In this document: piece by piece, positions 7,813 to 28,883 of the stretch
Numbering within the stretch: the stretch's first letter is position 1
Layout of the letters: the number at the start of each line of letters is the position of its first letter
NCBI GenBank assembly: GCA_045863335.1
Contig: BTVY01000061.1
Span: 1 to 30,135, forward strand
From: Candidatus Hydrogenedentota bacterium
GTDB taxonomy: Bacteria; Hydrogenedentota; Hydrogenedentia; Hydrogenedentales; SLHB01
Reading direction: 5' to 3'
DNA length: 30,135 nt
Position numbers and translations under genes: made by a program
Notes under the pieces: model-generated
Database searches by the model: none
What the model was told of the DNA's origin: nothing
What the model saw: the letters and a program-made list of their open reading frames with translations, nothing else

Positions 7813-7890
7813 CGGGGCGTAGCGCAGCCCGGTTAGCGCACTTGACTGGGGGTCAAGAGGTCGCTGGTTCGAATCCAGTCGCCCCGACCA
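7813..7890 (+). tRNA. tRNA-Pro (anticodon GGG), probable integration site
   Basis: Acceptor stem CGGGGCG/CGCCCCG, anticodon arm CTTGA-CTGGGGG-TCAAG, T-loop GGTTCGAATCC, encoded 3' CCA. Confidence 0.97.
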
Positions 7891-9524
7891 TCTTTCTTTC
7901 CTGAACTTTGGTGCAATGTAGCGAAATCACCTGTAAATACAGGGCTTTTCGTGCGTCGCTTTCGATCCCGCTTCTGATCGCCTTTTCCGGCTTCAATGCA
8001 TGCAACGGACTCCGAATGACCCTGACTGCATTTTTTCGATACAGTCAGCGATACAGTCACGGGCGGGGTGTCTTCGGCATGAGCGACCTTCGGCACAGTG
8101 CCTTTCTCGACATGTGGAAGCGCCGGTAACTGGGAAACCGCCGCCGCGCCGTCCAGGACGGAGAGGTGAGTGTAGGTACCCATGGTGAGGCGCGGGTCGG
8201 AGTGCCTCATCAATTGGGCCGCCTGCTGGAGGCTAACGCCAGAACGGGCGAGTTCACTGGCGAACGTGGCGCGTAACGAGTGGATGTCGAGCGTACGGCC
8301 ATGTGCATCAATCTTGTCGATTCCCGCGAACGCAAGGTCACGGTCGAATACCCGGACCATCGAGGCTGGGAGATCAAACAGTTTGACACTTGGATCAAGG
8401 GCCATCGGAATCGGGCCGTCGGCTTTGCGTGCTGCCCGCTGAGCCGCGCTGAGCATGTCCGACAGGTATTCATTCAGCGTGACGAGGAGATCGGCATGCA
8501 GAGGAAGCACGGCGCCGCGCCGCGCTTTTTCGTCCTTCGCGTAAAGTTCGATACAGGGTGGTACTTCGTTCAATCGCAACTGACCGATGGTAAGGCTTCG
8601 CAATTCGCCATATCGTAGACCTGTGTAAGCGAGCATTCGAATCACAAGCCCGCGTTTTCTGCCCACGCTCTCGAGTCTTGTGATGGTTGCCCCTTGCAGC
8701 TTTGCCGCATTGCCAGGGTTTTTGTGACGTCGATCCGCCAGCGGCCGCCGTTCCGCTGCGTTGATGACCTTGGCGAGTTCCTCCAGCGTCAGCGCCCGCC
8801 GGGGCCGGCGCCGGTCCGTACGCTCATTCAATGTCCGTATGCCGGCAAACGGATTGGAACCGAGCCGCTCCACTTCAACCAGCCAGGAACCGAACGCTTT
8901 CGCCGCAACGATTCGTGCATTGACGGAACGGGCACTTAGAGGGGTTTCATCGTCCGCCCGTTTGGTCTCGTCCTCTTTTGGAATACGGCGAGGCTCCACG
9001 CGAAGCCGTCCGATCCATCTCTCGAAGGCCTCCCGGTTCATGTCCCGGAGCAGATTCCAGCCGCAAGCGTCAATCATGAATTTCAGGAATCGTTCCGTAT
9101 TGTCCACGTGCTCCTGAGTGGTCCCGCGTGACACGAGCGCCGAGGTATAGTCCGCAACATGTTCGAGAACGGATCTGTTGCCATGGTCCAAAAACCTGCG
9201 TTCACGGGGAGTCAGGGCGCCGACCCGTTCCCGCTCCGCTTCCCGCTCGAACCTCGCCAGTTCTGACCGCGCTGCGTCCTGAGTCCGGCAACCAGTTGAC
9301 CGTGTGACCGTCTTCCCGTCCGCGTCCTTGTACCGTGCCAGGTACACGCCGCAAGCCTGTACGATACGCCACGAGCCATCCCGCCGTTGCTTGACGGACT
9401 TGCGTTGACTCTTGCCATTGTCGTCAGTCCATTCCGCGAACCACCGGCCCTTGATCTTGACGATCTTCGCGTCGTCTGGCAGGGGTTTCCATTTCTCTGG
9501 TTTGAAGATGAATCCCATGATCAC
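7833..9524 (-). CDS. Tyrosine recombinase / phage-type integrase
   Basis: Catalytic motifs YTGLRYGEL (R), DEKARR (K), DIHSLRATFAS (HxxR), LMRHSD (H), TMGTY (Y); N-terminal arm-binding-like region (RSTGCRTQDAA); adjacent to and overlapping the tRNA. Confidence 0.95.
   Translation of the reverse strand: MIMGFIFKPEKWKPLPDDAKIVKIKGRWFAEWTDDNGKSQRKSVKQRRDGSWRIVQACGVYLARYKDADGKTVTRSTGCRTQDAARSELARFEREAERERVGALTPRERRFLDHGNRSVLEHVADYTSALVSRGTTQEHVDNTERFLKFMIDACGWNLLRDMNREAFERWIGRLRVEPRRIPKEDETKRADDETPLSARSVNARIVAAKAFGSWLVEVERLGSNPFAGIRTLNERTDRRRPRRALTLEELAKVINAAERRPLADRRHKNPGNAAKLQGATITRLESVGRKRGLVIRMLAYTGLRYGELRSLTIGQLRLNEVPPCIELYAKDEKARRGAVLPLHADLLVTLNEYLSDMLSAAQRAARKADGPIPMALDPSVKLFDLPASMVRVFDRDLAFAGIDKIDAHGRTLDIHSLRATFASELARSGVSLQQAAQLMRHSDPRLTMGTYTHLSVLDGAAAVSQLPALPHVEKGTVPKVAHAEDTPPVTVSLTVSKKCSQGHSESVACIEAGKGDQKRDRKRRTKSPVFTGDFATLHQSSGKKDGRGDWIRTSDLLTPSQVR
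8037..8059 (+). repeat. Tandem direct repeat CGATACAGTCA x2 (12-bp period), candidate integrase arm-type sites
   Basis: Exact 11-mers at 8037 and 8049, about 150 bp from the tRNA 3' end. Confidence 0.45.
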
Positions 9525-13765: not shown

Positions 13766-14143
13766 ATGAGATTTGGAGAACACATCAAGACGAGGAGGCT
13801 GGAACTAGGGCTGTCGCTTCGCGCTTTCTGCCTCAAGTACGGGGAAGACCCGAGCAACTGGAGCAAGCTCGAACGCGGCTTGCTTCCGGCGCCGGACAAG
13901 TACGAGCGGTTGCTGCAGATCGGCCAGTACCTCGGATACGAGGATGACAGCCCTAAGATGCGGGAGTTCTTCGACATGGCCAGTGTCAGCAAGGGAAGGA
14001 TTCCCGACGACATTCAGAGCGACGTAGCGCTCATGGAGAAGTTGCCGCTTGTGTTCCGGACTTTGAGAGACACGCCCACCGAAGGGGAACTCATGCGGTT
14101 GGCGGACCTGATCCGGGGGGCTCACCGTCCGGATGCTGAGTGA
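13766..14143 (+). CDS. XRE-family HTH repressor (ImmR-like)
   Basis: MRFGEHIKTRRLELGLSLRAFC..DPSNWSKLERGLLPAP; GGAGG RBS; overlaps the ImmA-like gene. Confidence 0.88.
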   Translation: MRFGEHIKTRRLELGLSLRAFCLKYGEDPSNWSKLERGLLPAPDKYERLLQIGQYLGYEDDSPKMREFFDMASVSKGRIPDDIQSDVALMEKLPLVFRTLRDTPTEGELMRLADLIRGAHRPDAE

Positions 14144-14591
14144 CCGGCAGATACGTGAAGCCGCGGACCGGTATCGCGAAGAGAACTGGCATGATGGGAC
14201 GATGCCCGTAGACATCGAACTGATACTGGAACGCATGGGCATCGATATCGTCCCGGTTGCGAACTTCCTCAGCGATGTTGGCGTGGACGCTTGTTTGTCG
14301 GCCGACCTGACAACGATCTATATCGATCTTCAGTACTACATGGATGAACGCATGACCTTCCGGGTCCGTTTCAGTGAGGCTCACGAGTTGGGCCATCTGG
14401 TTCTACACAGGCATGTCTTCGAGGAATTCAGAAGGGCATCGCCGGGCTCGGTTTTGGAGCGGGCGCGGCACGTGCGGGACCGGTTCGAGAATGAGTTGCT
14501 GGAGAAAGAGGCCGACGAGTTTGACCGCCTCATTGACCGCCCCCTGACCAGCCCGCTTACGACGCAATGGCGCGCTACTGTAATCTCCTGA
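14133..14591 (+). pseudogene. ImmA/IrrE-family Zn metallopeptidase, apparently 3'-truncated
   Basis: PVDIELI, RVRFSEAHELGHLVLH (HExxH), LEKEADEF; family similarity seems to stop at ~14523 where FA..LL.P and the C-terminal part would be expected. Confidence 0.65.
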
Positions 14592-14843: not shown

Positions 14844-15058
14844 AAAGCAGGACCAAGAGCGCCTCGGGCGGGGGATTGGGTAAGCGCGACGAAGCGAGTT
14901 TGGGTCTAGTACGGTGCGCGGGTGTTGATCCTTGACACCCCCACGCGGCTCATCTTGGGGAAGATGCAGCCTGTCGTCCTCCTTCCTCGTTTCCATCGCA
15001 GCACGTTCATGCAATTGATGTTGTGTGGGGTTTGCCCAACGATACGGGGAGCGTTGTC

Positions 15059-18000
15059 ATGCTCGCATTGCTCAAGAACCGGGTCTGGTTGCGGATCGTA
15101 ACTGTTTTCACCATCGCCACCTTCTTACCCTCCGCCGCTGGCGCGTGGAACTTCTTCCCTGCCAAGCTGGACGCCGAGGAGGCAAGTGCGCCGGAGAATC
15201 CATGGGCCGACCTTCCATGGGTCACGGCGGAGCAGTCCGCCGCCGCAGATTTCTCGCTGCTCCCGTGGGAATCCACGGGTGAGGGTGCGTCGCTTGATGG
15301 TTTCCACTCACCCTTAAAGCTGGCAAACCTCGATACGCCATCCGGCTCGCCGGGTGACTCAACCGAGATGGCAAAGTCCAGTTCCCAGGACTCCGGAAAC
15401 TCTCTGGAAGCTCAAGGGTACCGGCCGGTCCAACTTGCCAAGGCAACCGGCGGACTCCCGAACGCAAGCGAGTTGTTGGCCAACCTCGCGGCGATGAGCG
15501 AAAAAAAGGACGAACCCAAGAATGAACCGGTAGTCCTGGCCCAAGCCGAACCGGCCGCCCCCGAACCGTTGCCGGCGCCAGGTACGCTGGCCTACCAAGT
15601 CGCGGAAGCGAAAGCGTCTTTTGACAATGGCGAGTACGTAAGTGCCGGCCTGTCCTTTCTGTCGCTCGCGAATCAGTACTCCAGTGCCGAGGCCATTGCA
15701 GAGGCCGATGACGGCGTGAGCAGCATCATGCAAGGCACTCTGGATGGCACCATACCCTTTAGCGTCATGGACGCGTTTACGGCGCAGTTGCCGCCCTGGG
15801 AATCCCTCTCCACCGAAGCGCGGTATATTCTCGTCAGCGCGTACAACAACGGAGTCGAATCCGCGATTGAGAAGAACAACCCAGCGGGTGTCACTTACTA
15901 CATTCCTCAAGGGTTGGCGGTTGCATCCGCTTTTTGCCACGAAAACGGAGACAGCTATTTCATTCAATCCGCTGTCGATTACTACCACGATACCGCCACC
16001 GCCGCCGGTCCCGAACAAGTGGCCTTGCTCATCGCGGAATTTGAGGACATCGCAAGCGTTCACAACCCGGAAGAAAGCAGCCTGGCGGGACCCCTACACA
16101 AGATCGCCGTCCTGGATGTGCTCGACCGGCACTTCGCCGAAGTAGAGCATAACTTCCAACGCAGTCCTTACTACTGCGCCATGATTGAAGGGGCCGCTGC
16201 GAGCTCTGAATTCCAAGCCGTTTTCGACAATAAGGACGTTCAACCCTGGGTCAAGGCGTTTTACGCGTTCGTTGTAGGCCGCGCCCTCTGGCGACTGCAT
16301 AAGTACGAAGAAGCCTACGCCATGTACAACCAGGGCATTGCCTATGGTCCGGATCGCGGATCCACCCGCCAAGCCCTCGAGTTCTACGCGACGCAGGTGT
16401 ACTCGATCATCATGGGGGACGACGAATACGCGGGTATTCTGGCCTTCAACGACTTCTTAACCGCTTATCCCAACGCCGACTACAAGGACCGCGCACTCCT
16501 GCAAATGGGCGGGCTTTATCTCCGGGCCGGGGATTGGGCGAGCGCCCTTGAGTTCTTCCGGCAAGTTATCGCGGAATTCCCGGAAGGGCAAGTCGCGAAA
16601 GTGTGCCAAGGCGAGATTGATTACATCATGAATAATCTCTATGGCACAGTGCAGGTGGCGAAGACCCGGTCAGACGCCTCCGTCACTGATGCCGTACGCA
16701 CGGCCCAACTCTGCGGCCCATACGCCCTGCGGGAGTTGCTCGCCGCCCGGAATATCGACGCGTCGGTTGAACAGTTGGCTCAGGTCGCAGGGAGTGACGA
16801 AGACGGGACTTCCATGCTGGGCCTCATCGAGGCAGCAAATGGGTACAACGTCCAGCTCTCAGGAGTCCAGTACGCGTCCGTAGATACGCTACAGGTGCCT
16901 TGTCTCGCATTTGTCAATGGCAATCACTTTGTCTACGTGGAATCTGTCGATACGGACTGGATCAAATACCGGGACATCCAACTTGGCTCGGGACGGATGG
17001 CCACCCGGCGCTTCGCGTCTATTTGGAACGGTGAGGCATTGGTCACGGATGCGCCCATCCAGACGGCAACCCTATTGACTTCCGAGTCGCTATCGATGCT
17101 TGTGGGCGGGTGTGATGATGGTGGCGGAGATACTACAGAGATCGAAGAGAGTGACTACGAAGAAGACTGCCCAACTCAGAATGCGCATACCGTCGGTCGT
17201 TCAGGTGGTGGTTCAGCTAGCGGCTGTGGGGGATGTGGGGCGAATACCCCATGCAGTCCGGCAGCCCGAATCAGTACCAATAGCCCCGGCGTAAACGTGA
17301 TGATTGATGGATTTCAATCCCGTATGGTCATAACAGAAAACGACCTCTCGCTCGATTGTCCGGGGCCGCTAAGGCTCTTTTTCGAGCGCATATACACGAA
17401 TCCGGTTGGGTATCAGAAAGAGTATAGTGAACTCGGGGATGGCTGGACGCACACCTATAGCCAGGAGAACGGTTTCTATCAAGCAGCCGCGTGGAGCCAT
17501 GCCTTTATCACTACTACACTGGAGACGAGGTACTTTGATGTAGAAAACATACATACCAATTTGCACGTCAGCCTACCCCGTGGGGGGCACTATTCTAGAA
17601 GTACTTCAGCGCCAGAGTTTCTCGATGGAAATTGCGCCGTCGAACATCCCGATCCGTATATTTACGAGAGAAACGGTGTGACGTATCAATATGAGCCGAC
17701 AGCTACGTATACAGACGCATTTGGAGATTGCGGGGACATCTTTCACGCGCTCACCGTGAGCACCCAGTATCGACTAGCGTCAATACATTCGGCGAGCGCT
17801 GGTGCATTGAGCATGAGTTACGACGGATCGGGCCGCGTTACTATGGTAACCGCTCCAGGTTCGGCCGGCCAAGTTTTACACATTACGTACGCGGGTGATC
17901 GCATTTCTCAAGCCTCACTCTCTGTAGATTCTACACCAATAGCGGTTGTCGAATACGAATACAATGCCAATGGAGAATTGACGAAGGTTCTCGACATCAA

Positions 18001-21000
18001 CGACAACGCTGTCACCTACGAGTATGGATCCGACACGAACGCCCCTGGTTCTCGATTCATCACGAAGATCACCGATCGCATGGGTACCGAAACCTATTTC
18101 GACTACGAATTCGGTCAGGACTACGAGCAAAACTGGGAGGCAACCAAAATAACGGTCACCGATGAGGCCGGACTGACTGCCGTTTATGATCGGAGTATCA
18201 CAACGGATGTCGCGACAATCACGGTTCAAGATCGATCCACCGTTCTGCGCAAGATCGTTAATACGCCGGTCACCGGTAATCTCAATTTATCCCGGTACAT
18301 GGACTATTATATCGACTCGACAAACTGCGAACGCTGGGAGTATGAATACGATCTCGGTTATAGACTCACGAAGGTGCTTACGCCTGCCGACGATGTCTGG
18401 CAGGAGTATGAATATGATTCTACGTTGTATGACCGCCTAACAAAAGCGCGTCGCGGTACGGGTCCATGGACGTATTTTGGCTATGCAGACGACTTCACCA
18501 GATATGCAAACAGCATTACCGGTCCCGATGGCACCGTTACGAATATCCACTATGACGCCAACGGGCGCATTTCCAAAGTAACACATCCATCAGTCGGTGC
18601 TTACGGGACCCAATACGCTTACGACTCATTTGGCGACGTAACGCGGGTAACTGACCCGTCTGGCAGATTCACGGACTACGCATACGATTCGGCGGGTAAT
18701 CTGACCGCCGTATCCGATCCGAATTCTAACGTGACGACGTTCTCCTATGATGACTTCGGGAATGTCACGTCGGTGACGGACCCGCGCAGCAAAACGACGG
18801 AGTATGAGTACGCCACGGGCGGGTGCTCGGGTTGTGGCGGGAGTTTCGGGCTTCTGACGAAGGTCATCGATCCGCTGGATGAAGAGACGACGATGGCCTA
18901 CGATACGAACGGGAACCTGACGAAGGTCACGGATGCCCTCGGCGTGGTGACGGATTATTTCTATGACGCGATGAACCGGTTGACGAAGGTGCAGACGCCG
19001 GCGCCGTCGGGGCCGTATATGACGCTGGCCTATGACAAGCAGGGGCAGGTCGTGTCGCGGACGGATTTTGAGGGGGTGACGACTACGTACGAGTACGACC
19101 ATAGGCAGCGCTTGACGAAGTCGACGGACCCGATTGACGACGTCACGGTGGCCTACGCGAGCGATGGGCTGTTGGATTCGGTGACGGATGGGTTGAGCCA
19201 TTCGACGGTTTACGATTACGATGGAGCGTTCCGGTTGACGTCCATCACGGATGCCGCGAGCAAGGTTGTAAAGTATTTCTATGACACCTCCGGGCGGATG
19301 ACGAAGGTGGGCGCGGGGTCTACGGGGACCTTTGATCCGACGGAGTATTTCTTCGACGCCACGACGGGGTTGATGACGAAGGTGCGGTATACGTCGGATA
19401 CGAGCACGTTTGATGCGAACTATTTCTACGACAGCCTCGCCAGAGTGACGAAGATCACGGATTGGATCGATGGGACGAATGGGTTGCGGTATGGGTATGA
19501 CGACGCGGGGCGGCTGACGTCCATCACGGATTACGATAACTCGACGTTGACGTATGCCTACGACGCGGCGGGGAATGTGACGTCGATGACGGATTATCAT
19601 GGGAACACGACGACGTATACGTACACGGATAGGAATGAGTTGAGCACGTTGACGGCGCCGGGGTCGAAGACGTGGACCTTCCACTACAACGACATCGGGC
19701 AGCCCACGTATTATGATATCCCGAACGGGATGACGACGAATTACGGGTACGATTCGCGGAATAGGCTGACGACGATCGAGCATAAGGACGGGACCACGGT
19801 GCTGGATGGGTTTGCGTATGCGTTGGATGACGTGGGGAACATCACGAGTACCACGCATGAGGATGGGTCGTTCTGGGATTACGAATATGACGGGCGGTAT
19901 CGCTTGACCAGCGCGGTGCGGAAGAATTCGAACGAGACCATCGAGGCCACGTATGCGTATACATACGATGCCGGTGACAATTTATTGACCAAGGTCGAGC
20001 CGTTTGAGGACGATTTTAACGACGGCAATTACACGGGCTGGTCGGCGTGGTCGGGCACGTGGAGCGCGGCGAACAATTATCTCCGCATGACGCCGGGGTC
20101 GGCGGCGACGATTGCCAAAGCCAACACGGACAATGACAACGAGTTGCGGTTCTCGTACGTCTGCAACGATACGAGCAACGCGGGCTACACGTTGACGGTG
20201 AGTCCGCGCTACGCGTCCAGCGGCGACCGGATTTACCTGGAGATCAAGCCCGGTTCGATCAACCTGTCGCAACGGGTCAGCGGCGTGTGGTCGTCGTTGG
20301 ATACGAGCGCCACGTCGAGCACGCAGGGCACCGAGTACGCCATCCGCGTCGTATGCGACGGGCAAAACGTGACGGTGTACCGCGCCGCGCCGGGCGCGTT
20401 GGAAGAGGAAATCCTCTCCACGTCCAGTTGCACCGTCGCCAGCACGAACAACGTCTCCTTCACCCCGTCCGCGAACGCGGACTACAGCATCGACAACATC
20501 CGCGTTCTGTCCAACGACCTCAGCAACACGACCACCTTCGCCGTCAACAACGCCAACGAACTCACGTCCATGACGGACTACAACGGCTCCACCACCTTCG
20601 GCTTCGACGCCTGGGGCCGCATGACGAGCAAGGCCCGCGGCAGCTATGCCGCCACCTACGGCTACCGCTACGGCCAAATGCTCCGCTCTCTTACCTCCGA
20701 CTTCCCCGGTGAAGGGAATGTGACGTATGAGTACGGGGCAAACCACAGACAGCGACAGTCCACAATCGGAGCTGCATCGGAATACTACAATTGGACGGCC
20801 AACCACGTTGTCAACGTAGAGAACGGGAGCGGAGGGTTGCAGCGCACCAGCATTGGCGGCACTTTGGCTGTGGTCACCGGTGCGTCAGCGGCCTCTGGTT
20901 CATATGAATACCATATGCACGATGTGATACTATCTGACGTTTCCGCATTTGACGCGGATAAACAAAGAACTGCGCGTCATGAGTACGAGCCTTACGGCGA

Positions 21001-21667
21001 TTCATATTCCAACATACTGCTCAGTAGTGGAATGACATTTGCAACTCACGCTTGGCGGACAAGTGCGGAAACCTATTTTGGGGTTTTCAGACAATACTCT
21101 CCGAGCCTTGGACGATGGCTCAGCCGAGATCCCTTGGGATTTGTCGATGGCTTCAATCTCTACTCTTACGTAATGGCAAATCCAGTAAGCCGTGTAGATC
21201 TGTGGGGGCTAGACATCTGGACGGAAGGGCCGAGCGGTAACGAGCCGTCCGGTCATATGAGCGTGTGTGTGGGCGATCCGAATGGATTCTATCAATCGTT
21301 CAGCTTTGGCTTGAATATCGGACTGTGGCCACCGCCTCCTGCAGGTGTAGCGTATCCAGATTTGGACTTGGGCGGAGATATCTACAAGTATCTGCCCACA
21401 ACCGATGAACAAGATATTGAAGCTACACAGATACTTCTTCAAGACTTGGATGATTACTGGAATCTTTACGGTCCCGAGAACTGTCGCACGTACAGTGATA
21501 GAAAGTGGACGAGCTTTCGGTTGAAGTACCAGGATTCGACCACACCAACCGATCCACCGATAAGAATGGGTCCCACTCCTGACCGGCCTTGGTGGAGAAG
21601 AATGTTCGATTGGTTCTCGACTACTTTCAGTTCTACCGAAGTCAATTCACTTTTTGGCGGGGGGTGA
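15059..21667 (+). CDS. Large Rhs/YD-repeat polymorphic toxin: signal peptide, TPR region, C39 peptidase, GG-leader motif, Rhs shell with lectin-like insert, C-terminal toxin
   Basis: GGGGAG RBS, signal peptide ending PSAAGA; TPR-like FLTAYPNADYKDRALLQMGGLY..QVIAEFPEG; C39 motifs LCGPYAL, GTSMLGLIEAA, NHFVYV, YRD, WNGEAL; many YD repeats; core end GRWLSRDPLG..NLYSYVMANPVSRVDLWGL. Confidence 0.93.
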   Translation: MLALLKNRVWLRIVTVFTIATFLPSAAGAWNFFPAKLDAEEASAPENPWADLPWVTAEQSAAADFSLLPWESTGEGASLDGFHSPLKLANLDTPSGSPGDSTEMAKSSSQDSGNSLEAQGYRPVQLAKATGGLPNASELLANLAAMSEKKDEPKNEPVVLAQAEPAAPEPLPAPGTLAYQVAEAKASFDNGEYVSAGLSFLSLANQYSSAEAIAEADDGVSSIMQGTLDGTIPFSVMDAFTAQLPPWESLSTEARYILVSAYNNGVESAIEKNNPAGVTYYIPQGLAVASAFCHENGDSYFIQSAVDYYHDTATAAGPEQVALLIAEFEDIASVHNPEESSLAGPLHKIAVLDVLDRHFAEVEHNFQRSPYYCAMIEGAAASSEFQAVFDNKDVQPWVKAFYAFVVGRALWRLHKYEEAYAMYNQGIAYGPDRGSTRQALEFYATQVYSIIMGDDEYAGILAFNDFLTAYPNADYKDRALLQMGGLYLRAGDWASALEFFRQVIAEFPEGQVAKVCQGEIDYIMNNLYGTVQVAKTRSDASVTDAVRTAQLCGPYALRELLAARNIDASVEQLAQVAGSDEDGTSMLGLIEAANGYNVQLSGVQYASVDTLQVPCLAFVNGNHFVYVESVDTDWIKYRDIQLGSGRMATRRFASIWNGEALVTDAPIQTATLLTSESLSMLVGGCDDGGGDTTEIEESDYEEDCPTQNAHTVGRSGGGSASGCGGCGANTPCSPAARISTNSPGVNVMIDGFQSRMVITENDLSLDCPGPLRLFFERIYTNPVGYQKEYSELGDGWTHTYSQENGFYQAAAWSHAFITTTLETRYFDVENIHTNLHVSLPRGGHYSRSTSAPEFLDGNCAVEHPDPYIYERNGVTYQYEPTATYTDAFGDCGDIFHALTVSTQYRLASIHSASAGALSMSYDGSGRVTMVTAPGSAGQVLHITYAGDRISQASLSVDSTPIAVVEYEYNANGELTKVLDINDNAVTYEYGSDTNAPGSRFITKITDRMGTETYFDYEFGQDYEQNWEATKITVTDEAGLTAVYDRSITTDVATITVQDRSTVLRKIVNTPVTGNLNLSRYMDYYIDSTNCERWEYEYDLGYRLTKVLTPADDVWQEYEYDSTLYDRLTKARRGTGPWTYFGYADDFTRYANSITGPDGTVTNIHYDANGRISKVTHPSVGAYGTQYAYDSFGDVTRVTDPSGRFTDYAYDSAGNLTAVSDPNSNVTTFSYDDFGNVTSVTDPRSKTTEYEYATGGCSGCGGSFGLLTKVIDPLDEETTMAYDTNGNLTKVTDALGVVTDYFYDAMNRLTKVQTPAPSGPYMTLAYDKQGQVVSRTDFEGVTTTYEYDHRQRLTKSTDPIDDVTVAYASDGLLDSVTDGLSHSTVYDYDGAFRLTSITDAASKVVKYFYDTSGRMTKVGAGSTGTFDPTEYFFDATTGLMTKVRYTSDTSTFDANYFYDSLARVTKITDWIDGTNGLRYGYDDAGRLTSITDYDNSTLTYAYDAAGNVTSMTDYHGNTTTYTYTDRNELSTLTAPGSKTWTFHYNDIGQPTYYDIPNGMTTNYGYDSRNRLTTIEHKDGTTVLDGFAYALDDVGNITSTTHEDGSFWDYEYDGRYRLTSAVRKNSNETIEATYAYTYDAGDNLLTKVEPFEDDFNDGNYTGWSAWSGTWSAANNYLRMTPGSAATIAKANTDNDNELRFSYVCNDTSNAGYTLTVSPRYASSGDRIYLEIKPGSINLSQRVSGVWSSLDTSATSSTQGTEYAIRVVCDGQNVTVYRAAPGALEEEILSTSSCTVASTNNVSFTPSANADYSIDNIRVLSNDLSNTTTFAVNNANELTSMTDYNGSTTFGFDAWGRMTSKARGSYAATYGYRYGQMLRSLTSDFPGEGNVTYEYGANHRQRQSTIGAASEYYNWTANHVVNVENGSGGLQRTSIGGTLAVVTGASAASGSYEYHMHDVILSDVSAFDADKQRTARHEYEPYGDSYSNILLSSGMTFATHAWRTSAETYFGVFRQYSPSLGRWLSRDPLGFVDGFNLYSYVMANPVSRVDLWGLDIWTEGPSGNEPSGHMSVCVGDPNGFYQSFSFGLNIGLWPPPPAGVAYPDLDLGGDIYKYLPTTDEQDIEATQILLQDLDDYWNLYGPENCRTYSDRKWTSFRLKYQDSTTPTDPPIRMGPTPDRPWWRRMFDWFSTTFSSTEVNSLFGGG
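19529..20735 (+). repeat. Master copy of the Rhs homology block repeated in the orphan cassettes
   Basis: Recurs at ~21984-22790, ~24303-25397 and ~26775-27983; the stretch from CCGGGCGCGTTGGAAGAG to GGCTACCGCTACGG is nearly identical in all four copies. Confidence 0.92.
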
Positions 21668-21670
21668 AAT

Positions 21671-21931
21671 GTGCTCTCGGATCGCAAGAATAGGGACTTG
21701 ATCGTTGCACTACTATTTCTGGGGCTAAGTGTAGCATTTTCGCATGTCTCTTCTCCCCAGTACACACGGGTCTTGGTATTGTCGCTTCTGCTAGCTCTAG
21801 CGGGAGTTGCGACATGCACTGCTCACATCGCCTGTTTCGCCCAGAGGCGTTGGCTGTTCATAGGCGTCGGTTTGATTATCTTAATCTACGCCGTTTTACT
21901 AGGGACTACATTGTTTGACGAATGGGGTTGA
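21671..21931 (+). CDS. Small membrane protein, putative immunity protein of the lead Rhs toxin
   Basis: Starts 3 nt after the toxin stop; three hydrophobic segments; lower GC. Confidence 0.6.
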   Translation: MLSDRKNRDLIVALLFLGLSVAFSHVSSPQYTRVLVLSLLLALAGVATCTAHIACFAQRRWLFIGVGLIILIYAVLLGTTLFDEWG

Positions 21932-23741
21932 GTTTCTTCTTTCTAGGGAAATGAAGGGACAGACCACGAAATACACGGAGGCCGAGCCGTTCGAGGACGA
22001 CTTCAATGACGGCAATTACACCGGCTGGTCGGCGTGGGGCGGCACGTGGAGCGCGGCGAACATGGTAGGTGTCTTTCGCTATCACGCTCAGCCGCGTGAT
22101 AGCTGGCGACGCGGGCGGTTTCGCTCCGCTGCAACCGCCGGCATGACGCCTGGGTCGGCGGCCACGATTGCGAAGGCGAACACGGACAACGACAACGAGG
22201 TCCGGTTCTCGTACGTGTGCAACGACACGAGCAACGCGGGCTACGCGTTGACGGTGAGTCCGCGGTATGCGTCGAGCGGCGACCGGATTTACCTGCTCAT
22301 CAAGCCGGGCGTAGTCACCCTGAACCAACGCGTGGGCGGCGTGTGGTCGTCGTTGGATGCCCAGATTCTCACAAGCACGCAGGGCATCGAGTACACCATC
22401 CGCGTCGTGTGCGACGGGCAGGACGTGCAGGTGTTCCGCACCGCGCCGGGCGCGTTGGAAGAGAAAATCCTCTCCACCTCCAGTTGCACCGTCGCCAGCA
22501 CGAACAACGTCTCCTTCACCCCGTCCGCGAACGCGGACTACAGCATCGACAACATCCGCGTTCTGTCCAACGACCTCAGCAACACGACCACCTTCGCCGT
22601 CAACAACGCCAACGAACTCACGTCCATGACGGACTACAACGGCTCCACCACCTTCGGCTTCGACGCCTGGGGCCGCATGACCTCCAAGGCCCGCGGCAGC
22701 TACGCCGCCACCTACGGCTACCGCTACGGGGATATGCTCTGCTCGGTTGCCAGTGATTTTCCGGGAGAGGGGGATGTGACGTATGAATATGGCGAAGACG
22801 GCAAAAGACGCGAAAGGCACGTGAATGGTCAGGAGACATACTATCGCTGGGGATCTGGGCGGCAGCGGATTAGCGATGAAGATGGAAGCGGGACATTACA
22901 AAACACGTATATTGGCGCAGCTCTCGCTCATGTGTCGGGCGAGAACGCTGCTACGGGTGAAGTTCAGTACTATTTGCGGGACTTTCAGCGATCAATAAGA
23001 AGTATTCGAGACCAACAAAGGGGGTTGGTGCTGGCGGACGAATGGACGCCGGTGGGGAAAAAGTATTTCGAATCAGGTGCGTCAATACGAAGCGTATTCT
23101 CGGAACTCGATTGGGATTCCACGGCGCATGGCTATCTTGCCCTAATGCGTTTCTATGATGCGCAAACATCTCGGTGGAATCAGCGAGATCCTTTGTCATT
23201 CATAGACAGTACGAATTTGTACCTTTATGTAAAAGGCAATCCAATCGCGTTCACCGATCCACTCGGATCAAGTGTCGCCTTGCCGTACCCTTGGGTTGGT
23301 CCCGTGGCCGGTGGTTGTGCTCTTGCGGATGGTCCATTCCCAGTCGGAGATTTTCTCGCACTGGCGTTACTCCTAGTAGTCGGTCTTTGCGCCGCCGACT
23401 CCACGGGAGACCCGCCTCCCGGATGGATAGATCCCGAAAACAGGAGGACTTGTTCCGGGTCGGTGTATGACTTGCTCGTTAAGAACGTGCATGAGAAGTG
23501 CAAGAATGTGGATGGCATGGCGAAATGCCGACATGAGGTTGACGATATGGCAACATTGACGGTGAAAATGGAAATATTCAGCACATGCTTAGCGGCGCGA
23601 ATGACTCTCAACAGGGTGTGCTTCAATGGTGGGACTAAAAACCATCGAAGGGAAGTGGGAGCCATGGCAAAGAATGTTCTGAAGTGTGCAGGTGAGATGG
23701 AATTGAGAAGACGAAAAGACGCTAAGCAGAATCAAGAGTAA
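21915..23741 (+). CDS. Orphan Rhs-CT cassette 1; Cys-rich helical toxin tip resembling Ntox16
   Basis: Homology to the lead gene from ~21984; core end SRWNQRDPL..NPIAFTDPLG (~23267); ALADGPFPVGD plus hydrophobic helix; tip CLAAR..LNRVCFNGGTKNH. No convincing start, so probably silent. Confidence 0.8.
   Translation: MTNGVEFLLSREMKGQTTKYTEAEPFEDDFNDGNYTGWSAWGGTWSAANMVGVFRYHAQPRDSWRRGRFRSAATAGMTPGSAATIAKANTDNDNEVRFSYVCNDTSNAGYALTVSPRYASSGDRIYLLIKPGVVTLNQRVGGVWSSLDAQILTSTQGIEYTIRVVCDGQDVQVFRTAPGALEEKILSTSSCTVASTNNVSFTPSANADYSIDNIRVLSNDLSNTTTFAVNNANELTSMTDYNGSTTFGFDAWGRMTSKARGSYAATYGYRYGDMLCSVASDFPGEGDVTYEYGEDGKRRERHVNGQETYYRWGSGRQRISDEDGSGTLQNTYIGAALAHVSGENAATGEVQYYLRDFQRSIRSIRDQQRGLVLADEWTPVGKKYFESGASIRSVFSELDWDSTAHGYLALMRFYDAQTSRWNQRDPLSFIDSTNLYLYVKGNPIAFTDPLGSSVALPYPWVGPVAGGCALADGPFPVGDFLALALLLVVGLCAADSTGDPPPGWIDPENRRTCSGSVYDLLVKNVHEKCKNVDGMAKCRHEVDDMATLTVKMEIFSTCLAARMTLNRVCFNGGTKNHRREVGAMAKNVLKCAGEMELRRRKDAKQNQE
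22063..22140. repeat. REP-like double-hairpin insertion inside orphan cassette 1
   Basis: 78 nt absent from the three sister copies; GTAG near the 5' end, hairpins GCTATCACGC-N6-GCGTGATAGC and GGCGGTT-N12-AACCGCC. Confidence 0.6.
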
Positions 23742-23763
23742 GACTCGAAGTCAGAGCGGGACC

Positions 23764-24243
23764 ATGGTTAACGAGCAGAGTTTCGAGAAGGTTCGAGAAT
23801 CGGTACAGGATGCTTTTGCGGTCAGACCGATTCCTTGTGGGCGATCTGTAGTGTCGCTTGATCCGGACTACGACCTTGAGAGTAAGCAGGTCATGGACGA
23901 CTTTGGCGGGAAGACTTGGACAGAGCTTTCCGAAGAGTTTCTTGTCGATAACATTAGCGCCGTGTCTTTCCTCAGTGACAGTGCATTGTTCTATTTCCTC
24001 CCGTCCTATCTAATTTGCGGTTCGGGCGATAGCTCCAAGGCCGCGTTGATCCGCGACACGATCATATTTCGTCTTGTTGCTGTTGAGTATGTCAGAGATG
24101 AGAGCACTCTGACTCGCGAATTGAAGACGCTAAGCCACTCGCAAAAGGACGCGTTGCGCGATTGTCTCAATTATTGGAAGGTTCGATTTCCAGAGGATCG
24201 CATGACTGAAGAGATCGATATTATGTTACGGTATATCTACTAA
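23764..24243 (+). CDS. Putative immunity protein (DUF6714-like)
   Basis: Directly after orphan toxin 1; DFGGKTWTEL..VSFLSDSALFYFLPSYL matches my recollection of the DUF6714 pattern. Confidence 0.65.
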   Translation: MVNEQSFEKVRESVQDAFAVRPIPCGRSVVSLDPDYDLESKQVMDDFGGKTWTELSEEFLVDNISAVSFLSDSALFYFLPSYLICGSGDSSKAALIRDTIIFRLVAVEYVRDESTLTRELKTLSHSQKDALRDCLNYWKVRFPEDRMTEEIDIMLRYIY

Positions 24244-24250
24244 TACATAG

Positions 24251-26278
24251 TTGTTGGTATCGTTGCGCTTATTTCAATTACAACTGCGCAGCGCATTGAG
24301 ATGCACCTTGACCGCGCCGGGGTCGAAGACGTGGACGTTCCATTACAACGACATCGGGCAGCCCACGTATTACAATATCCCGAACGGGATGACGACGAAT
24401 TATGGGTACGATTCCCGGAATAGGCTGACGACCATCGAGCACAAGGATGGGACCACGGTGCTGGACGGGTTTACGTACACCCTGGACGATGTGGGGAATA
24501 TCACGAGCACGACGCATGAGGATGGGTCGTTCTGGGAGTATCTCTACGATGGGCGGTATAGGTTGACGAGCGCGGTGCGGAGCAATGCGAACGAGACCAT
24601 CGAGGCGAGCTATGCCTATACCTATGATGCCGGAGATAACCTGCTGACCAAGGTCGAGCCCTTCGAAGACGATTTCAATGACGGCAACTACACCGGCTGG
24701 TCCGTCTGGTCCGGCACGTGGAGCGCGGCGAACAACTACCTCCGGATGACGCCGGGGTCCGCGGCGACGATTGCCAAGGCGAATACGGATAACGACAACG
24801 AACTGCGCTTCTCGTACGTCTGCAACGACACGAGCAACGCGGGGTATACGCTGACGGTCAGCCCACGCTACGCATCCAGCGGGGATCGGGTGTACGTCAA
24901 CATCCTGCCGGGGTCCATCAACCTCGCGCAACGCGTGGGCGGCGTGTGGTCGTCCTTGGACACCAGCGCTACGTCGAGCACGCAGGGCGTTGAGTACACC
25001 ATCCGCGCCGTGTGCGACGGGCAGAACGTGCAGGTGTTCCGCACCACGCCGGGCGCGTTGGAAGAGGAAATCCTCTCCACGTCCAGTTGCACCGTCGCCA
25101 GCACGAACAACGTCTCCTTCACCCCGTCCGCGAACGCGGACTACAGCATCGACAACATCCGCGTTCTGTCCAACGACCTCAGCAACACGACCACCTTCGC
25201 CGTCAACAACGCCAACGAACTCACGTCCATGACGGACTACAACGGCTCGACCACCTTCGGTTTCGACGCCTGGGGCCGAATGACCGGCAAGGCCCGCGGC
25301 AGCTACGCCGCCACCTACGGCTACCGCTACGGCCAGATGCTCCGCTCCGTCACCAGCGACTTCCCCGGCGAAGGCGATGTGACGTATGAGTATGGCGGGG
25401 ATCGGAAGCGACGGCAGCGAGATGACGGTGTCGAATCTACGTGGTACAACTATGAATTCGGCTGGATAGCAATTAGTGAAGAAGGACAAGATGGTGTTCT
25501 TGAGCGTACGTATTTTGGTGACCACTTGGCGATATCGGATGGAACAAACCCGTCCTCAGGGAGTTGGAAGTATCCTGTTCAAGACAATCTGGGCTCACTC
25601 GTGGGAGTCAGGGACCACGCCAAGAATTCTGTCACGGCACGTGAATTTGGTCCCTATGGCACTGATTATGATAGCAGCGGCGAGATCGCCGCTCCGTCCC
25701 GCAGCTATACTGGGCACACTTTCGATGGGGCATCTAAGTTGTACTTTGCCCCATATCGGTTCTTTAGCTCTATCCAATCTCGCTGGATCACTAAAGATCC
25801 GTTAGGACTTGTCGACGGACCAAATATGTATGGCTACGTTAGGGGGCGGGTTATAAACTTTCGAGATGCCTTGGGATTGCACACACAGGCAGAGTGCCGC
25901 GCCGATGCTTTTAGGGCTCAGAGGAACTGCATGAGCATTGCGGATGACGCCTATGACATCATGGTTCAAAATGCAAATGATCAGTACTGGAATGCCATGA
26001 CAGTTATTGAGGAGCATAAACAGAGCTGCTATATTCTGACGTGCGAACGGTGGTTTGGATTTGATCGAGATTCAGATGCATATGTCAGATGCACATGGAT
26101 GTGCGAAGTAGCCGCAAGTGAGGGGGCCACGGCTGCATTCTATGAATATAACCAGGAATTGCTTGTTGCCGGGGCTATGCATGCCAAGGATGTAGCGTCA
26201 TGCAATGCATCGTTTCTAATTGCGAAGGCCAAATGTAGCTTGCATCCTCAGAACAAGCTCTTTCATCCTTGTGAATAA
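24251..26278 (+). CDS. Orphan Rhs-CT cassette 2; Cys-rich helical tip of unknown function
   Basis: Homology to the lead gene from ~24303; core end SRWITKDPLGLVDGPNMYGYV..RDALGL (~25879); no convincing start. Confidence 0.8.
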   Translation: MLVSLRLFQLQLRSALRCTLTAPGSKTWTFHYNDIGQPTYYNIPNGMTTNYGYDSRNRLTTIEHKDGTTVLDGFTYTLDDVGNITSTTHEDGSFWEYLYDGRYRLTSAVRSNANETIEASYAYTYDAGDNLLTKVEPFEDDFNDGNYTGWSVWSGTWSAANNYLRMTPGSAATIAKANTDNDNELRFSYVCNDTSNAGYTLTVSPRYASSGDRVYVNILPGSINLAQRVGGVWSSLDTSATSSTQGVEYTIRAVCDGQNVQVFRTTPGALEEEILSTSSCTVASTNNVSFTPSANADYSIDNIRVLSNDLSNTTTFAVNNANELTSMTDYNGSTTFGFDAWGRMTGKARGSYAATYGYRYGQMLRSVTSDFPGEGDVTYEYGGDRKRRQRDDGVESTWYNYEFGWIAISEEGQDGVLERTYFGDHLAISDGTNPSSGSWKYPVQDNLGSLVGVRDHAKNSVTAREFGPYGTDYDSSGEIAAPSRSYTGHTFDGASKLYFAPYRFFSSIQSRWITKDPLGLVDGPNMYGYVRGRVINFRDALGLHTQAECRADAFRAQRNCMSIADDAYDIMVQNANDQYWNAMTVIEEHKQSCYILTCERWFGFDRDSDAYVRCTWMCEVAASEGATAAFYEYNQELLVAGAMHAKDVASCNASFLIAKAKCSLHPQNKLFHPCE

Positions 26279-26383
26279 GGATTATGTAGAACGAACTACG
26301 CCAGAACATACGGGTTATATAATTGCTTTCAAAGGTAGAGCGATGCCCGCGAGAGAACTCTGCAACATATTGGAGCCTACGGG

Positions 26384-26653
26384 ATGCTAATTCGGGCGGT
26401 AGTGTTCATGATATGTTTCCCTGTATCTGTGTGCGTAATTTCATTGTCCGTATATGGTCTTACGCGCATTATCAAAGCTATCTATACCGAGACCTATTTT
26501 GGTGCCTTTGCGATGTTCGGGCAGCCTTTTGATCTGGTTCTCGAGATAGCAATGATTGTCCTCGTTAGTATTCCAATCGTCCTACCGGCGTGCTGGCTAT
26601 TCGTAAACCTTCGCAAATTACTCAATCGCGCTTCTTGGAAATCGAAAGGATAG
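26384..26653 (+). CDS. Small two-TM membrane protein, putative immunity protein
   Basis: GGAG RBS; two hydrophobic helices; follows orphan toxin 2. Confidence 0.55.
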   Translation: MLIRAVVFMICFPVSVCVISLSVYGLTRIIKAIYTETYFGAFAMFGQPFDLVLEIAMIVLVSIPIVLPACWLFVNLRKLLNRASWKSKG

Positions 26654-26738
26654 AGAGGCGCAGTACTCTATTACGGAACGCGAGTGCAATAAATGGGGAC
26701 GTCCATGATAGGTATAAGTCAAGAGGCAAAGCGGGCGG

Positions 26739-28883
26739 TTGCCATTGCGTCGGTTTCGCATTCTATTGCGACGAGATTACGACAACTCCGTGTTGACGTA
26801 CGCGTATGACGGCGCGGGGAATGTGACGTCGATGACGGATTATCACGGCAACACGACGGCGTATACGTACACGGATCGGAATGAGTTGAGCACCTTGACC
26901 GCGCCGGGGACGAAAACCTGGACCTTCCATTACAACGACATCGGGCAGCCCACGTATTACAATATCCCGAACGGAATGACGACGAATTACGCGTATGACA
27001 CCCGTAATCGCCTTACGGCGATCGAGCATAAGGACGGATCGACCGTGCTGGATGGGTTCACGTATGCCCTGGATGACGTGGGGAACATCACGAGCACGAC
27101 GCATGAGGATGGGTCGTTCTGGGAGTATCTCTATGATGGTCGGTATAGGCTGACGAGCGCGGTGCGGAGCAATGCGAACGAGACGATCGAGGCGAGCAAT
27201 GCCTACACCTATGATGCCGGGGATAACCTGCTGACCAAGGTCGAGCCGTTCGAGGATGATTTCAATGATGGCAACTACACGGGTTGGTCGGCGTGGTCCG
27301 GCACGTGGAGCGCGGCGAGCAATTATCTGCGGATGACGCCGGGGGCGGCGGCGACGATTGCCAAGGCGAACACGGACAATGACAACGAACTTCGGTTCTC
27401 GTATGTGTGCAATGATACGAGCAACGCGGGGTATACTTTGACGGTCAGTCCGCGCTATGCGTCGAGCGGGGACCGGATTTACTTGGAGATCAAGCCCGGT
27501 TCGATCAACCTGTCGCAGCGGGTCAGTGGTGTGTGGTCGTCGTTGGACGCCCAGGTTCTCACCAGCACGCAGGGCGTCGAGTACACCATCCGCGTCGTGT
27601 GCGACGTGCAAAACGTGCAGGTCTACCGGACCGCGCCGGGCGCGTTGGAAGAGGAAATCCTCTCCACGTCCAGTTGCACCGTCGCCAGCACGAACAACGT
27701 CTCCTTCACCCCGTCCGCGAACGCGGACTACAGCATCGACAACATCCGCGTTCTGTCCAACGACCTCAGCAACACGACCACCTTCGCCGTCAACAACGCC
27801 AACGAACTCACGTCCATGACGGACTACAACGGCTCGACCACCTTCGGTTTCGACGCCTGGGGCCGAATGACCGGCAAGGCCCGCGGCAGCTACGCCGCCA
27901 CCTACGGCTACCGCTACGGCCAGATGCTCCGCTCCGTCACCTCCGACTTCCCCGGCGAAGGGAACGTGACATATGAGTATGGTGGGGATCAGAAGCGTCG
28001 GCAACGCACTGTCGGTACGGACAATAGGTGGTACAACTATTCGGCCGGTTTGACGGTTGTAAATGAAGAGGACGGTTTGAATAATCTGGAACGGACGTAT
28101 GTTGGTCGTAGTTTTGCCCAGTCTGATGGCTCCAGCCCCGCCACGGGGGCCTGGTCCTACTATTTCCAGGATAGGTTAGGCTCAGTTCGAGTTGTGCGTG
28201 ACGGTTCAAAAGGATTGTCAGCTTCTTACGAATTTTCGCCCTATGGAAGTTTCTTTTCTTCGTCGGTCGGTTCGGGCACCACTTCGCCTCGATTTGCGGG
28301 ACTTGACTGGGAGGCTCCCAGCCAGCTTTACGTGGCTTCGTATCGGTACTATACCCCCACGCAAGCTCGCTGGAATAAGAGAGATCCTTTGGGGTTCGCA
28401 GCCGGGACGAATATTTACACTTATGTACGCAATAATCCAGCGAACCACGCAGATCCAACGGGAGCGTTTCCTGAAGAGTGGTGTAAAGTAGTTCGGGATC
28501 TTATGTACCTGCAATGCGATAGCATAACCGGAGATTCGACGGCGTTTGGAGATTTACTGGATTGGGAGAATTGTAGACGCAGAGCCGACGAGGCATATCG
28601 AAATTGTCGTGACGATGTATGGCCCTACCCGCCGGGCGATTATCAGTATCAAGGGGATCCGCTCGGCGAATTTGACCCAAGGTACTTTCCCCCGAGACGG
28701 CTAAGTTGTACTAGCCAGCGTCCACCCAACTATATACCAGATTCACCGCCAGGGTGGTGGACACCAGACTGGAATCTCCCAAGCTCGCTTGTCGGTCCCT
28801 CGCCCGCGGCGCAACAGGCATTCAACTCGACCGCCCTGTGGGGTGCGCTTCTCATATTTTTCGGCGTTCTACTTTTCGCGTAG
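26739..28883 (+). CDS. Orphan Rhs-CT cassette 3; Cys/Pro/Trp-rich tip with terminal hydrophobic helix
   Basis: Homology to the lead gene from ~26775; core end ARWNKRDPLG..NNPANHADPTG (~28463); ends ALWGALLIFFGVLLFA. Confidence 0.8.
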   Translation: MPLRRFRILLRRDYDNSVLTYAYDGAGNVTSMTDYHGNTTAYTYTDRNELSTLTAPGTKTWTFHYNDIGQPTYYNIPNGMTTNYAYDTRNRLTAIEHKDGSTVLDGFTYALDDVGNITSTTHEDGSFWEYLYDGRYRLTSAVRSNANETIEASNAYTYDAGDNLLTKVEPFEDDFNDGNYTGWSAWSGTWSAASNYLRMTPGAAATIAKANTDNDNELRFSYVCNDTSNAGYTLTVSPRYASSGDRIYLEIKPGSINLSQRVSGVWSSLDAQVLTSTQGVEYTIRVVCDVQNVQVYRTAPGALEEEILSTSSCTVASTNNVSFTPSANADYSIDNIRVLSNDLSNTTTFAVNNANELTSMTDYNGSTTFGFDAWGRMTGKARGSYAATYGYRYGQMLRSVTSDFPGEGNVTYEYGGDQKRRQRTVGTDNRWYNYSAGLTVVNEEDGLNNLERTYVGRSFAQSDGSSPATGAWSYYFQDRLGSVRVVRDGSKGLSASYEFSPYGSFFSSSVGSGTTSPRFAGLDWEAPSQLYVASYRYYTPTQARWNKRDPLGFAAGTNIYTYVRNNPANHADPTGAFPEEWCKVVRDLMYLQCDSITGDSTAFGDLLDWENCRRRADEAYRNCRDDVWPYPPGDYQYQGDPLGEFDPRYFPPRRLSCTSQRPPNYIPDSPPGWWTPDWNLPSSLVGPSPAAQQAFNSTALWGALLIFFGVLLFA

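Follow-up and report, generated by a model that had tools for sequence, protein, structure and literature searches.

How an Rhs toxin cage is matured and delivered in a bacterium without a type VI secretion system (T6SS) is the question raised by a gene in a 30,135-nucleotide stretch of DNA from a Candidatus Hydrogenedentota bacterium (GenBank assembly GCA_045863335.1, contig BTVY01000061.1, positions 1–30,135; hereafter, the window). To our knowledge, no maturation or delivery route has been described for Rhs toxins without a T6SS. The open reading frame (ORF) at 15023–21667 on the + strand encodes 2214 amino-acid residues, counted from GTG 15023, and combines in one chain a predicted signal peptide, a TPR-like carrier, a C39 peptidase, a double-glycine leader, a Cys/Gly linker, an Rhs shell and a C-terminal toxin, in that order. 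The C39 domain has a conserved catalytic dyad and is followed at a fixed distance by a conserved leader that is predicted to pack on the domain. The most probable reading (probability, about 0.62) is that this domain acts in cis as a releasing peptidase that would free the Rhs cage from the signal-peptide/TPR carrier, a cleavage predicted from sequence conservation and structural models. This autoprocessing interpretation is supported by every computational test that was run. The parts of the protein are as follows.

15059–15145, + strand: predicted Sec signal peptide, read from the sequence (K/R n-region, hydrophobic core, and the end PSAAGA followed by W)
15146–16675, + strand: N-terminal carrier of about 510 residues, of low complexity at first and then helical and TPR-like
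16676–17044, + strand: C39 papain-like cysteine peptidase domain, residues 552–674
17066–17110, + strand: double-glycine leader-like segment in cis, residues 682–696 (ATLLTSESLSMLVGG)
17111–17260, + strand: Cys-, Gly- and acid-rich linker, residues 697–746, predicted to be disordered
17282–21211, + strand: Rhs/YD shell, from a plug-like start (SPGVNVM...) through the Rhs-associated core
21212–21664, + strand: C-terminal variable toxin domain, 151 residues

The Pfam profile Peptidase_C39 (PF03412) matches residues 564–675 with 52.3 bits (cut-off, 22; E = 6.6e-14), and the match reaches 58.2 bits in a six-frame search of the genome. A first-pass annotation of this DNA had read a C39 peptidase with Cys, His and Asp here, and all of its coordinates are correct: Cys564 occupies codon 16712–16714 (within AQLCGPYAL), His635 occupies 16925–16927 (within NGNHFVYV), and Asp651 occupies 16973–16975, 16 residues after the His. 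WNGEAL (residues 668–673) closes the domain. In a phmmer search against PDB sequences, the Cys and His align with those of LahT150 (6mpz, E = 1.4e-5) and PCAT1 (4ry2, E = 1.4e-4), and Cys564, His635 and Asp651 all align to PCAT1/LahT150. The fold is likewise that of ComA, PCAT1 and LahT150. Foldseek with the AlphaFold2 (AF2) model described below finds PCAT1 (8vpb, E = 8e-9), ComA (5xe8, 3k8u) and LahT150 (6mpz; root-mean-square deviation, 1.3 Å over 115 columns) with probability 1.00 and target-normalized TM scores of 0.74–0.78 for the isolated domains. The StbD CdiA-CT toxin stands lower in the list (8ssk_D, E = 7e-6), which also includes the C39-like domain (CLD) of HlyB (3zua/7sgr). NCBIfam exporter models match residues 564–675 alone, with 27.3 bits against a cut-off of 853, and the remainder of the protein is TPR and Rhs. 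No ABC transporter (transmembrane domain plus nucleotide-binding domain) is attached to this C39 domain.

An exhaustive HMMER search with residues 521–736 found 790 proteins at E ≤ 1e-3, of which 69 were at E ≤ 1e-10; the best 150 of the 790 were examined. Rhs-type proteins, defined by the crude marker of at least three Y-x-Y-D motifs, number 27 among these 150. They are about 26–39% identical to the window protein and, together with it, form a GG-anchored alignment of 28 sequences. The catalytic Cys, always within C-G-P, is present in all 27 sequences that reach that position (P0028 begins after it), and the catalytic His is present in 28/28. The Asp at His+16 is retained in 24 of the 28 sequences, the other four having Glu (two), Gly (one) or Ser (one). 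In a second alignment (A2, 23 rows), the 13 invariant columns include C27, G28, P29, H98, the Gly of the W-x-G motif at the domain end, and the first Gly of the leader.

Classical double-glycine leaders conform to the consensus LSxxELxxIxGG and carry hydrophobic residues at −4, −7, −12 and −15. In the window protein, LLTSESLSMLVGG (residues 684–696) ends in GG at 17105–17110 and has Leu at −12, −7 and −4 and Gly at −2 and −1; the next residue is Cys697. The leader starts about 10 residues past the C39 domain, and its GG lies about 22 residues past the domain end. The predicted scissile bond, from both the conservation pattern and the model, is that between Gly696 and Cys697 (17110 and 17111). 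The segment is internal to the 2214-residue chain and downstream of the peptidase, rather than an N-terminal extension of a small precursor peptide.

The first-pass annotation had also expected a GG leader to recur after the domain in homologues, which it does. In the Rhs-type family, the hydrophobic and Gly residues are spaced as in classical double-glycine leaders. All 28 sequences have Gly at −2; at −1, 23 have Gly, three Ala and two Lys. Position −3 is Arg or Lys in 17/28. Hydrophobic residues (LIVMF) occupy −4 in 21/28 (with Ala in three more), −7 in 25/28 (Leu in 16, Met in nine) and −12 in 27/28 (Leu in 21). At positions +1 to +4 after the GG, no residue is conserved among the 28 Rhs-type sequences. 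The distance from the domain end to the GG is 20–24 residues in most Rhs-type members.

The same arrangement recurs within the genome and beyond it. The three C39 paralogues of the window genome are about 35% identical to one another in this region, have GG 22–23 residues past W-x-G-x-A-L in each case, and share one leader pattern (LLTSESLSMLVGG in the window protein, on contig C61; AMNTGQLTGAKGG on contig C4; ALKREQLANVWGG on contig C88). In a further set of 17 loci (six named metagenome-assembled genome (MAG) records and eleven genomes of the phylum), leader and GG stand at the same place in 16, and the remaining locus (L005) stops short of the site; these 17 are not fully independent, as some encode proteins already in the first set.

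A control count was made over all architectures. Among the 72 homologues that extend at least 30 residues beyond the domain, 30 have the strict pattern [LIVMF]xx[LIVMFA]xGG within 60 residues past its end, compared with 26 of 1002 (2.6%) equal-size windows elsewhere in the same proteins; 11 of the 150 matches, which have no recognisable domain-end anchor, are excluded. Of the 39 homologues scored as lacking the pattern, several come close to it, with Thr or Lys at −4 or with GA in place of GG, or belong to other classes. The other 67 of the 139 anchored matches stop less than 30 residues after C39 and are thus stand-alone C39 proteins. A further class, in which C39 is followed by a DUF1573-like beta domain (a label given by eye from a repeated F-D-x-x-x-Y-D-F-G pattern), shows no leader in the tails inspected by eye. 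Because both kinds of protein do without it, the leader does not belong to the C39 fold but is an addition to it.

AF2 modeling of residues 538–727 with alignment A2 gave a mean predicted local distance difference test score (pLDDT) of 85 and a predicted TM score of 0.76. The means over successive ten-residue blocks are 62, 62, 89, 98, 97, 95, 98, 97, 96, 96, 97, 95, 97, 94, 89, 93, 51, 52 and 56. The leader occupies the two blocks with means of 89 and 93 (model residues 141–160) and consists of a strand (145–147), a helix (150–155) and an extended stretch (157–158); confidence falls to 51 directly past the GG (model residues 158–159). Packing was judged from pLDDT and secondary structure: a free linker helix is not expected at pLDDT of about 90, and the model therefore packs the leader on the C39 domain. 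A two-chain test was also performed with A2 residues 1–137 (C39) and 138–175 as separate chains, in three runs with three controls. It gave an ipSAE of 0.37 against 0.01 for the best control, a result classed as weak support, with partner pLDDT of at least 52 and contact agreement between runs of at least 87%. In calibration, 58 of 80 solved complexes and 2 of 110 mismatched pairs attained the ipSAE mark; passes at 0.60 or under came from 7 of those 80 and from both passing mismatches, and unless the prior is good, such a pass is wrong in the majority of cases. Since leader-bound C39 structures such as 6mpz have already been solved, the docking result is a measure of likeness and not of binding. 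Thus, of the earlier proposal that the leader docks in the C39 groove, the packing of the leader on the domain up to the GG is reproduced by the one-chain model, and docking as a separate chain obtains the weak score given above.

The first-pass annotation placed the Rhs region directly after the GG, which needs correction, as a linker of about 50 residues (697–746) intervenes before the plug and shell. Residues 697–745 include five Cys and 11 Gly, and Cys716 (C179 of A2) is nearly invariant in A2. Homologue linkers after the GG are also Cys-rich and Pro/Gly-rich (e.g., PPCD..C.C, CSGDCCKC and PPCKKKKCKDCKPGGC), and that of the window protein has Cys at +1. Such linkers might form disulfides or bind metal, which might bear on redox control of a thiol peptidase.

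Upstream of the peptidase, the ORF probably starts at ATG 15059 (MLALLKNRVW...), since homologues begin at the corresponding Met. A motif at the end of the N-terminal signal, F[LF]P[SA][SA]xxxW[N]F (within 15059–15160), is found in 13/28 Rhs-type sequences. Its conservation exceeds the needs of a plain Sec signal, and it may therefore be a sorting or docking motif. The carrier has a Pfam TPR match at residues 491–521 (16493–16585; TPR_6, 28.9 bits; TPR_2, 27.2 bits; both just over the cut-offs), and weak matches to the periplasmic TPR proteins PorW/SprE, YbgF and BamD, all far under the cut-offs. Downstream of the linker, the plug-like start has a weak, sub-threshold match to DUF6531 (residues 768–815). 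The Pfam RHS_repeat family matches 14 stretches with E = 4.4e-79, which identifies Rhs/YD repeats, and Rhs_assc_core matches residues 1988–2063 (20984–21211) with 58.7 bits against a cut-off of 32.5. The DPxG...DxxGL motif of the core is present as RDPLGF ... VDLWGL (residues 2035–2063). The Pfam scan of the protein gave no PAAR match.

The window genome (6.75 Mb, 99.4% complete) yields three C39 matches in the six-frame search, all within giant Rhs-type ORFs: the window gene, a 2188-residue ORF on contig C4 (70382–76945), and one that is cut by the contig end on C88. Outside these three ORFs the genome has no C39 match, and hence no PCAT exporter. It also contains no Hcp and no TssC/VipB, and T6SS delivery was rejected because neither Hcp nor TssC is present. 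Seven Rhs-core matches were found: two in full-length genes, three in orphan ORFs of the window, and two on contig C2, which may be the lost end of the truncated C88 gene and an orphan. Both full-length Rhs genes and the truncated third carry the C39/GG module, and the signal-peptide/TPR/C39/GG region is the only N-terminal trafficking part of the full-length Rhs genes in this genome.

Across the phylum, the A2 model finds matches at E ≤ 1e-10 in 43 of 135 genomes, and in 26 of the 86 high-quality genomes. Strong matches span the leader positions and lie mostly in ORFs of 1000 to 6570 residues; matches limited to positions 22–137 represent other architectures. The closest named records are MAGs of Candidatus Hydrogenedentes/Hydrogenedentota and one MAG labelled Nitrospiraceae, and weaker matches to C39 alone occur in Planctomycetota and Bacteroidota. 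A word-indexed homologue search with residues 380–760 returned the protein itself as the sole match.

In the proposed mechanism, the Rhs polymorphic toxin would be exported through Sec, independently of a T6SS, and the C39 domain would then fold. The leader would fold back, as a short strand and an amphipathic helix, into the substrate groove and present Gly695–Gly696 to Cys564, and the peptidase would cut its own chain after Gly696. Of the two resulting pieces, one would be the carrier (signal peptide, TPR, C39 and leader) and the other a fragment of about 1518 residues that comprises the linker, Rhs cage and toxin. The Rhs core would then add its own C-terminal aspartyl self-cleavage, a reaction that is established for Rhs/Tc proteins. 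In this scheme, we infer the cut itself, its intramolecularity, its place after export and its trigger; redox control is possible by analogy with StbD-CT, described next.

StbD-CT, a C-terminal C39 toxin, cuts itself in cis after Gly157–Gly158, according to a preprint of May 2026 (10.64898/2026.05.07.723447). The reaction depends on Cys183, proceeds under reducing conditions only and is needed for intoxication, and the same Gly–Gly site is noted there in the T6SS effector Cpe1 (10.64898/2026.05.07.723447). As this work already characterises Gly–Gly auto-processing in cis by C39, the earlier view that no such maturation had been described is outdated. StbD-CT and Cpe1 resemble the window protein in that a C39 domain of similar fold lies inside a polymorphic toxin with a Gly–Gly in a flexible linker, the cis cut being known there and predicted here. 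In StbD-CT, however, C39 is the C-terminal toxin itself, which cleaves GyrB/ParE, and the site is N-terminal to C39, after the entry domain. In the window protein, C39 precedes the Rhs cage, the site follows C39 and belongs to a full leader helix, and the toxin is a different domain.

The leader peptidases of exporters are similar in other respects. The C39 domains of PCAT1, ComA and LahT have the same fold and the same arrangement of Cys, His and Asp, and PCAT/AMS substrates have the same motif shape (an amphipathic helix, hydrophobic residues at −4, −7 and −12, and Gly–Gly at −2/−1). In contrast to PCAT/AMS, the domain studied here lacks an ABC transporter, has the Gln before the Cys displaced and, with a Sec signal ahead of it, is predicted to reside outside the cytoplasm; its leader belongs to the same polypeptide, where it follows the domain in mid-protein.

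Among polymorphic toxins with RHS repeats, Tox-PL-C39 has been recorded in Bacteroidetes, Chloroflexi and Firmicutes (Zhang et al., 2012; PMC3482391), where it is placed among toxin domains and not among processing peptidases. The window C39 (residues 552–674) is N-terminal to the Rhs shell, and not a C-terminal toxin module of the Tox-PL-C39/StbD type. The releasing peptidases that the same survey lists for polymorphic toxins, namely HINT, ZU5, PrsW, caspase-like, Tox-PL1 and OTU (PMC3482391), share with the proposed mechanism the logic of an internal peptidase that frees part of the toxin; a double-glycine site has no occurrence in the main text of that survey. T6SS Rhs effectors such as RhsA and TseI undergo N-terminal autoproteolysis at the plug (Pro305 in RhsA) besides the C-terminal aspartyl cut, by a mechanism that is described in the part of the study available to us as intrinsic or unknown and as lacking a peptidase domain (PMC8765631). 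As in those effectors, a second cleavage would detach the cage of the window protein from the N-terminal trafficking region. Unlike them, the window protein has a dedicated C39 domain and a recognisable substrate motif about 50 residues ahead of the plug, in a genome without a T6SS. The literature consulted contained no C39 releasing peptidase upstream of an Rhs cage with a downstream leader helix, although the supplementary architectures of the 2012 survey may show C39 N-terminal to RHS. It likewise contained neither a T6SS-free, Sec-dependent form in Hydrogenedentota nor the same cassette in non-Rhs surface proteins.

Several observations weigh against autoprocessing in cis. Two of the 28 Rhs-type sequences have Lys at −1, and four lack the Asp at His+16. 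In papain and ComA, as in C39/papain enzymes, the oxyanion-hole Gln lies about six residues ahead of the catalytic Cys; no Gln is found there in the window protein (16694–16714) or in the Rhs-type alignment. A Gln at Cys−2 is present in the window protein (AQLCGP) and in 15/27 Rhs-type sequences. Outside the cytoplasm and beside a Cys-rich linker, a thiol protease may lose its activity through oxidation. The two-chain docking passed weakly, and both predictors may recall the solved LahT150–leader and PCAT1–substrate complexes. The homologue statistics draw on the best 150 of 790 matches. A class of non-Rhs proteins described below has K, E, S, R or M at −1, which is not canonical for C39.

Four other explanations were weighed. 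The C39 domain might work mainly in trans, on other copies of the toxin or on another Gly–Gly substrate, with the adjacent leader cut between molecules or as a first activating step; the usual substrates of PCAT-type C39 domains are separate peptides. Such action would account equally well for the conserved dyad and leader, and two of the three toxins of the genome, as well as the homologue P0010, end in ...GG and could provide further recognition elements. The fixed short spacing of 20–24 residues in most Rhs-type members suggests instead an intramolecular fit, as do the confident intramolecular AF2 packing in this protein and in P0134 and the cis processing that the preprint reports for StbD-CT. 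A C-terminal GG is, moreover, not general, being absent from the orphan cassettes and from most homologues. Action in trans is accordingly judged unlikely. The leader might also fill the groove uncut, as a structural or auto-inhibitory pseudosubstrate, with C39 serving as a peptide-binding or scaffolding module. C39-like domains that bind without cutting do exist (HlyB CLD, 3zua/7sgr), and this possibility would be in keeping with the misplaced oxyanion Gln and the extracytoplasmic, oxidising setting. Non-catalytic C39-like domains have lost the Cys, whereas here it is kept in 27/27 sequences and the His in 28/28; the −2 Gly is invariant, Gly or Ala stands at −1 in 26/28 as expected of a scissile site, and the sequence past the GG is unconserved and predicted to be disordered. 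An uncut latch therefore appears rather improbable.

Because the leader motif fits the substrates of exporters (consensus LSxxELxxIxGG), a separate PCAT/AMS ABC exporter might recognise the internal leader, and cut and export the Rhs part. All three C39 matches of the 99.4% complete genome lie in Rhs ORFs, the protein has an N-terminal Sec-type signal, and the leader lies 680 residues into a 2214-residue chain. A separate PCAT acting in trans was rejected since the genome has no further C39 match. Alternatively, the GG after hydrophobic residues might be a chance feature of a Gly-rich linker, and the linkers of these proteins are indeed rich in Gly. Against chance stand the invariant −2 Gly and the −4/−7/−12 pattern kept over 28 diverged sequences, and the strict pattern in 30/72 sequences after the domain versus 2.6% of background windows. 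Given the genome-wide C39 census, the 28-sequence conservation and the background control, a separate exporter is highly improbable and a chance motif more improbable still, and both are close to excluded. Release of the cage in cis by the C39 domain is thus the preferred interpretation.

A related arrangement occurs in proteins without Rhs repeats. Among the best 150 of the 790 matches, a class of proteins of 170–700 residues has a repeat-rich N-terminus followed by C39, a linker rich in N, T and S (0 to about 45 residues), the motif L-T-x-E-E-M-Q-x-I-K-G-[K/E/S/R], and a tail that is hydrophobic or rich in aromatic residues (P0038, P0047, P0053, P0062, P0074, P0075, P0089, P0100, P0106, P0113, P0119, P0127, P0132, P0134, P0143 and P0150). 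By subjective impression, this class looks archaeal or methanogen-like. In an alignment of the class (A3, 16 rows), the leader aligns despite the variable linker, the columns of Cys, His and Asp do not vary, and that of Ile at −4 is nearly invariant. An AF2 model of P0134 has block means of 96, 94 and 92 through Ile169–Lys170, with a helix at 163–168, and then 50, 54 and 44; pLDDT is below 50 from residue 174, and the break falls right past I-K-G-S, as in the Rhs type. Four longer proteins (P0059, P0128, P0145 and P0152) have L-x-x-D-x-M-x-x-L-I-G-G, with a hydrophobic segment about 40–50 residues later. Tentatively, and at somewhat less than even odds, C39 with its downstream leader can be viewed as a portable "cut here" cassette that would free the Rhs cage from its carrier in one setting and release a surface protein from its anchor in another.

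The remaining features of the locus, on the + strand, are as follows.

19997–20512, + strand: LamG/3-keto-disaccharide-hydrolase-like insert in the Rhs shell, residues 1659–1830 (EPFEDDFNDGNYTGWS ... DNIRVLS)
21671–21931, + strand: hydrophobic ORF of 86 residues right after the toxin, a candidate immunity protein on the basis of its position
21915–28883, + strand: array of orphan Rhs C-terminal cassettes, which is context outside the C39 module
21915–23741, + strand: orphan cassette ending in an Ntox16 domain (E = 1.3e-10)
23764–24243, + strand: DUF6714 gene, after the Ntox16 cassette
24251–26278, + strand: orphan cassette
26739–28883, + strand: orphan cassette

This layout is standard for an Rhs polymorphic toxin. 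The 151-residue toxin domain matched no Pfam family; a feature search of a protein atlas points to clusters that contain IcsB_M (in 21% of members) and TseH-like domains, with a score of 0.95, which suggests, as a lead only, a papain-like hydrolase or acyltransferase. The LamG-like insert is named after a weak Pfam match on an orphan copy (E = 0.0074, under the cut-off). All three orphan cassettes start at or shortly upstream of this insert, which therefore marks a recombination boundary. In the first of them (21915–23741), the insert is longer by about 25 residues, which follow WSAAN, than in the main gene and in the other two cassettes. The window toxin ends in ...NSLFGGG (21638–21664), the toxin encoded on contig C4 in ...EYLGLLGG, and P0010 in ...WQGG. 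The hydrophobic spacing of these ends recalls a second double-glycine motif, and may be due to chance. Their use as further C39 sites is unsupported as a general feature, as the three orphan cassettes of the window and most homologues end otherwise. Upstream of the Rhs gene are a gene of the phage-integrase family (7833–9524, − strand; E = 6.4e-13) and, immediately ahead of the Rhs gene itself, an ORF of 152 residues (14133–14591, + strand) with an H-E-L-G-H motif seen by eye and no Pfam match. The locus may lie at the edge of a mobile element.

C39 peptidases have so far been seen as exporter-bound leader peptidases and, recently, as toxins. If the proposed mechanism is true, C39 biology would gain a built-in maturation switch whose substrate lies downstream in the same chain. 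If the cassette is likewise portable, autoprocessing modules would gain a new general class, with parallels in the cysteine protease domain (CPD) of MARTX and large clostridial toxins or in sortase-like anchoring signals, and the specificity of C39 at position −1 would be relaxed. Its small size (about 150 residues) and defined site could also make the cassette usable as a self-cleaving tag. For the Hydrogenedentota, in which the module is frequent (43 of 135 genomes at E ≤ 1e-10), a recognisable, dedicated releasing peptidase would provide a directly testable handle on the maturation of Rhs toxins without a T6SS.

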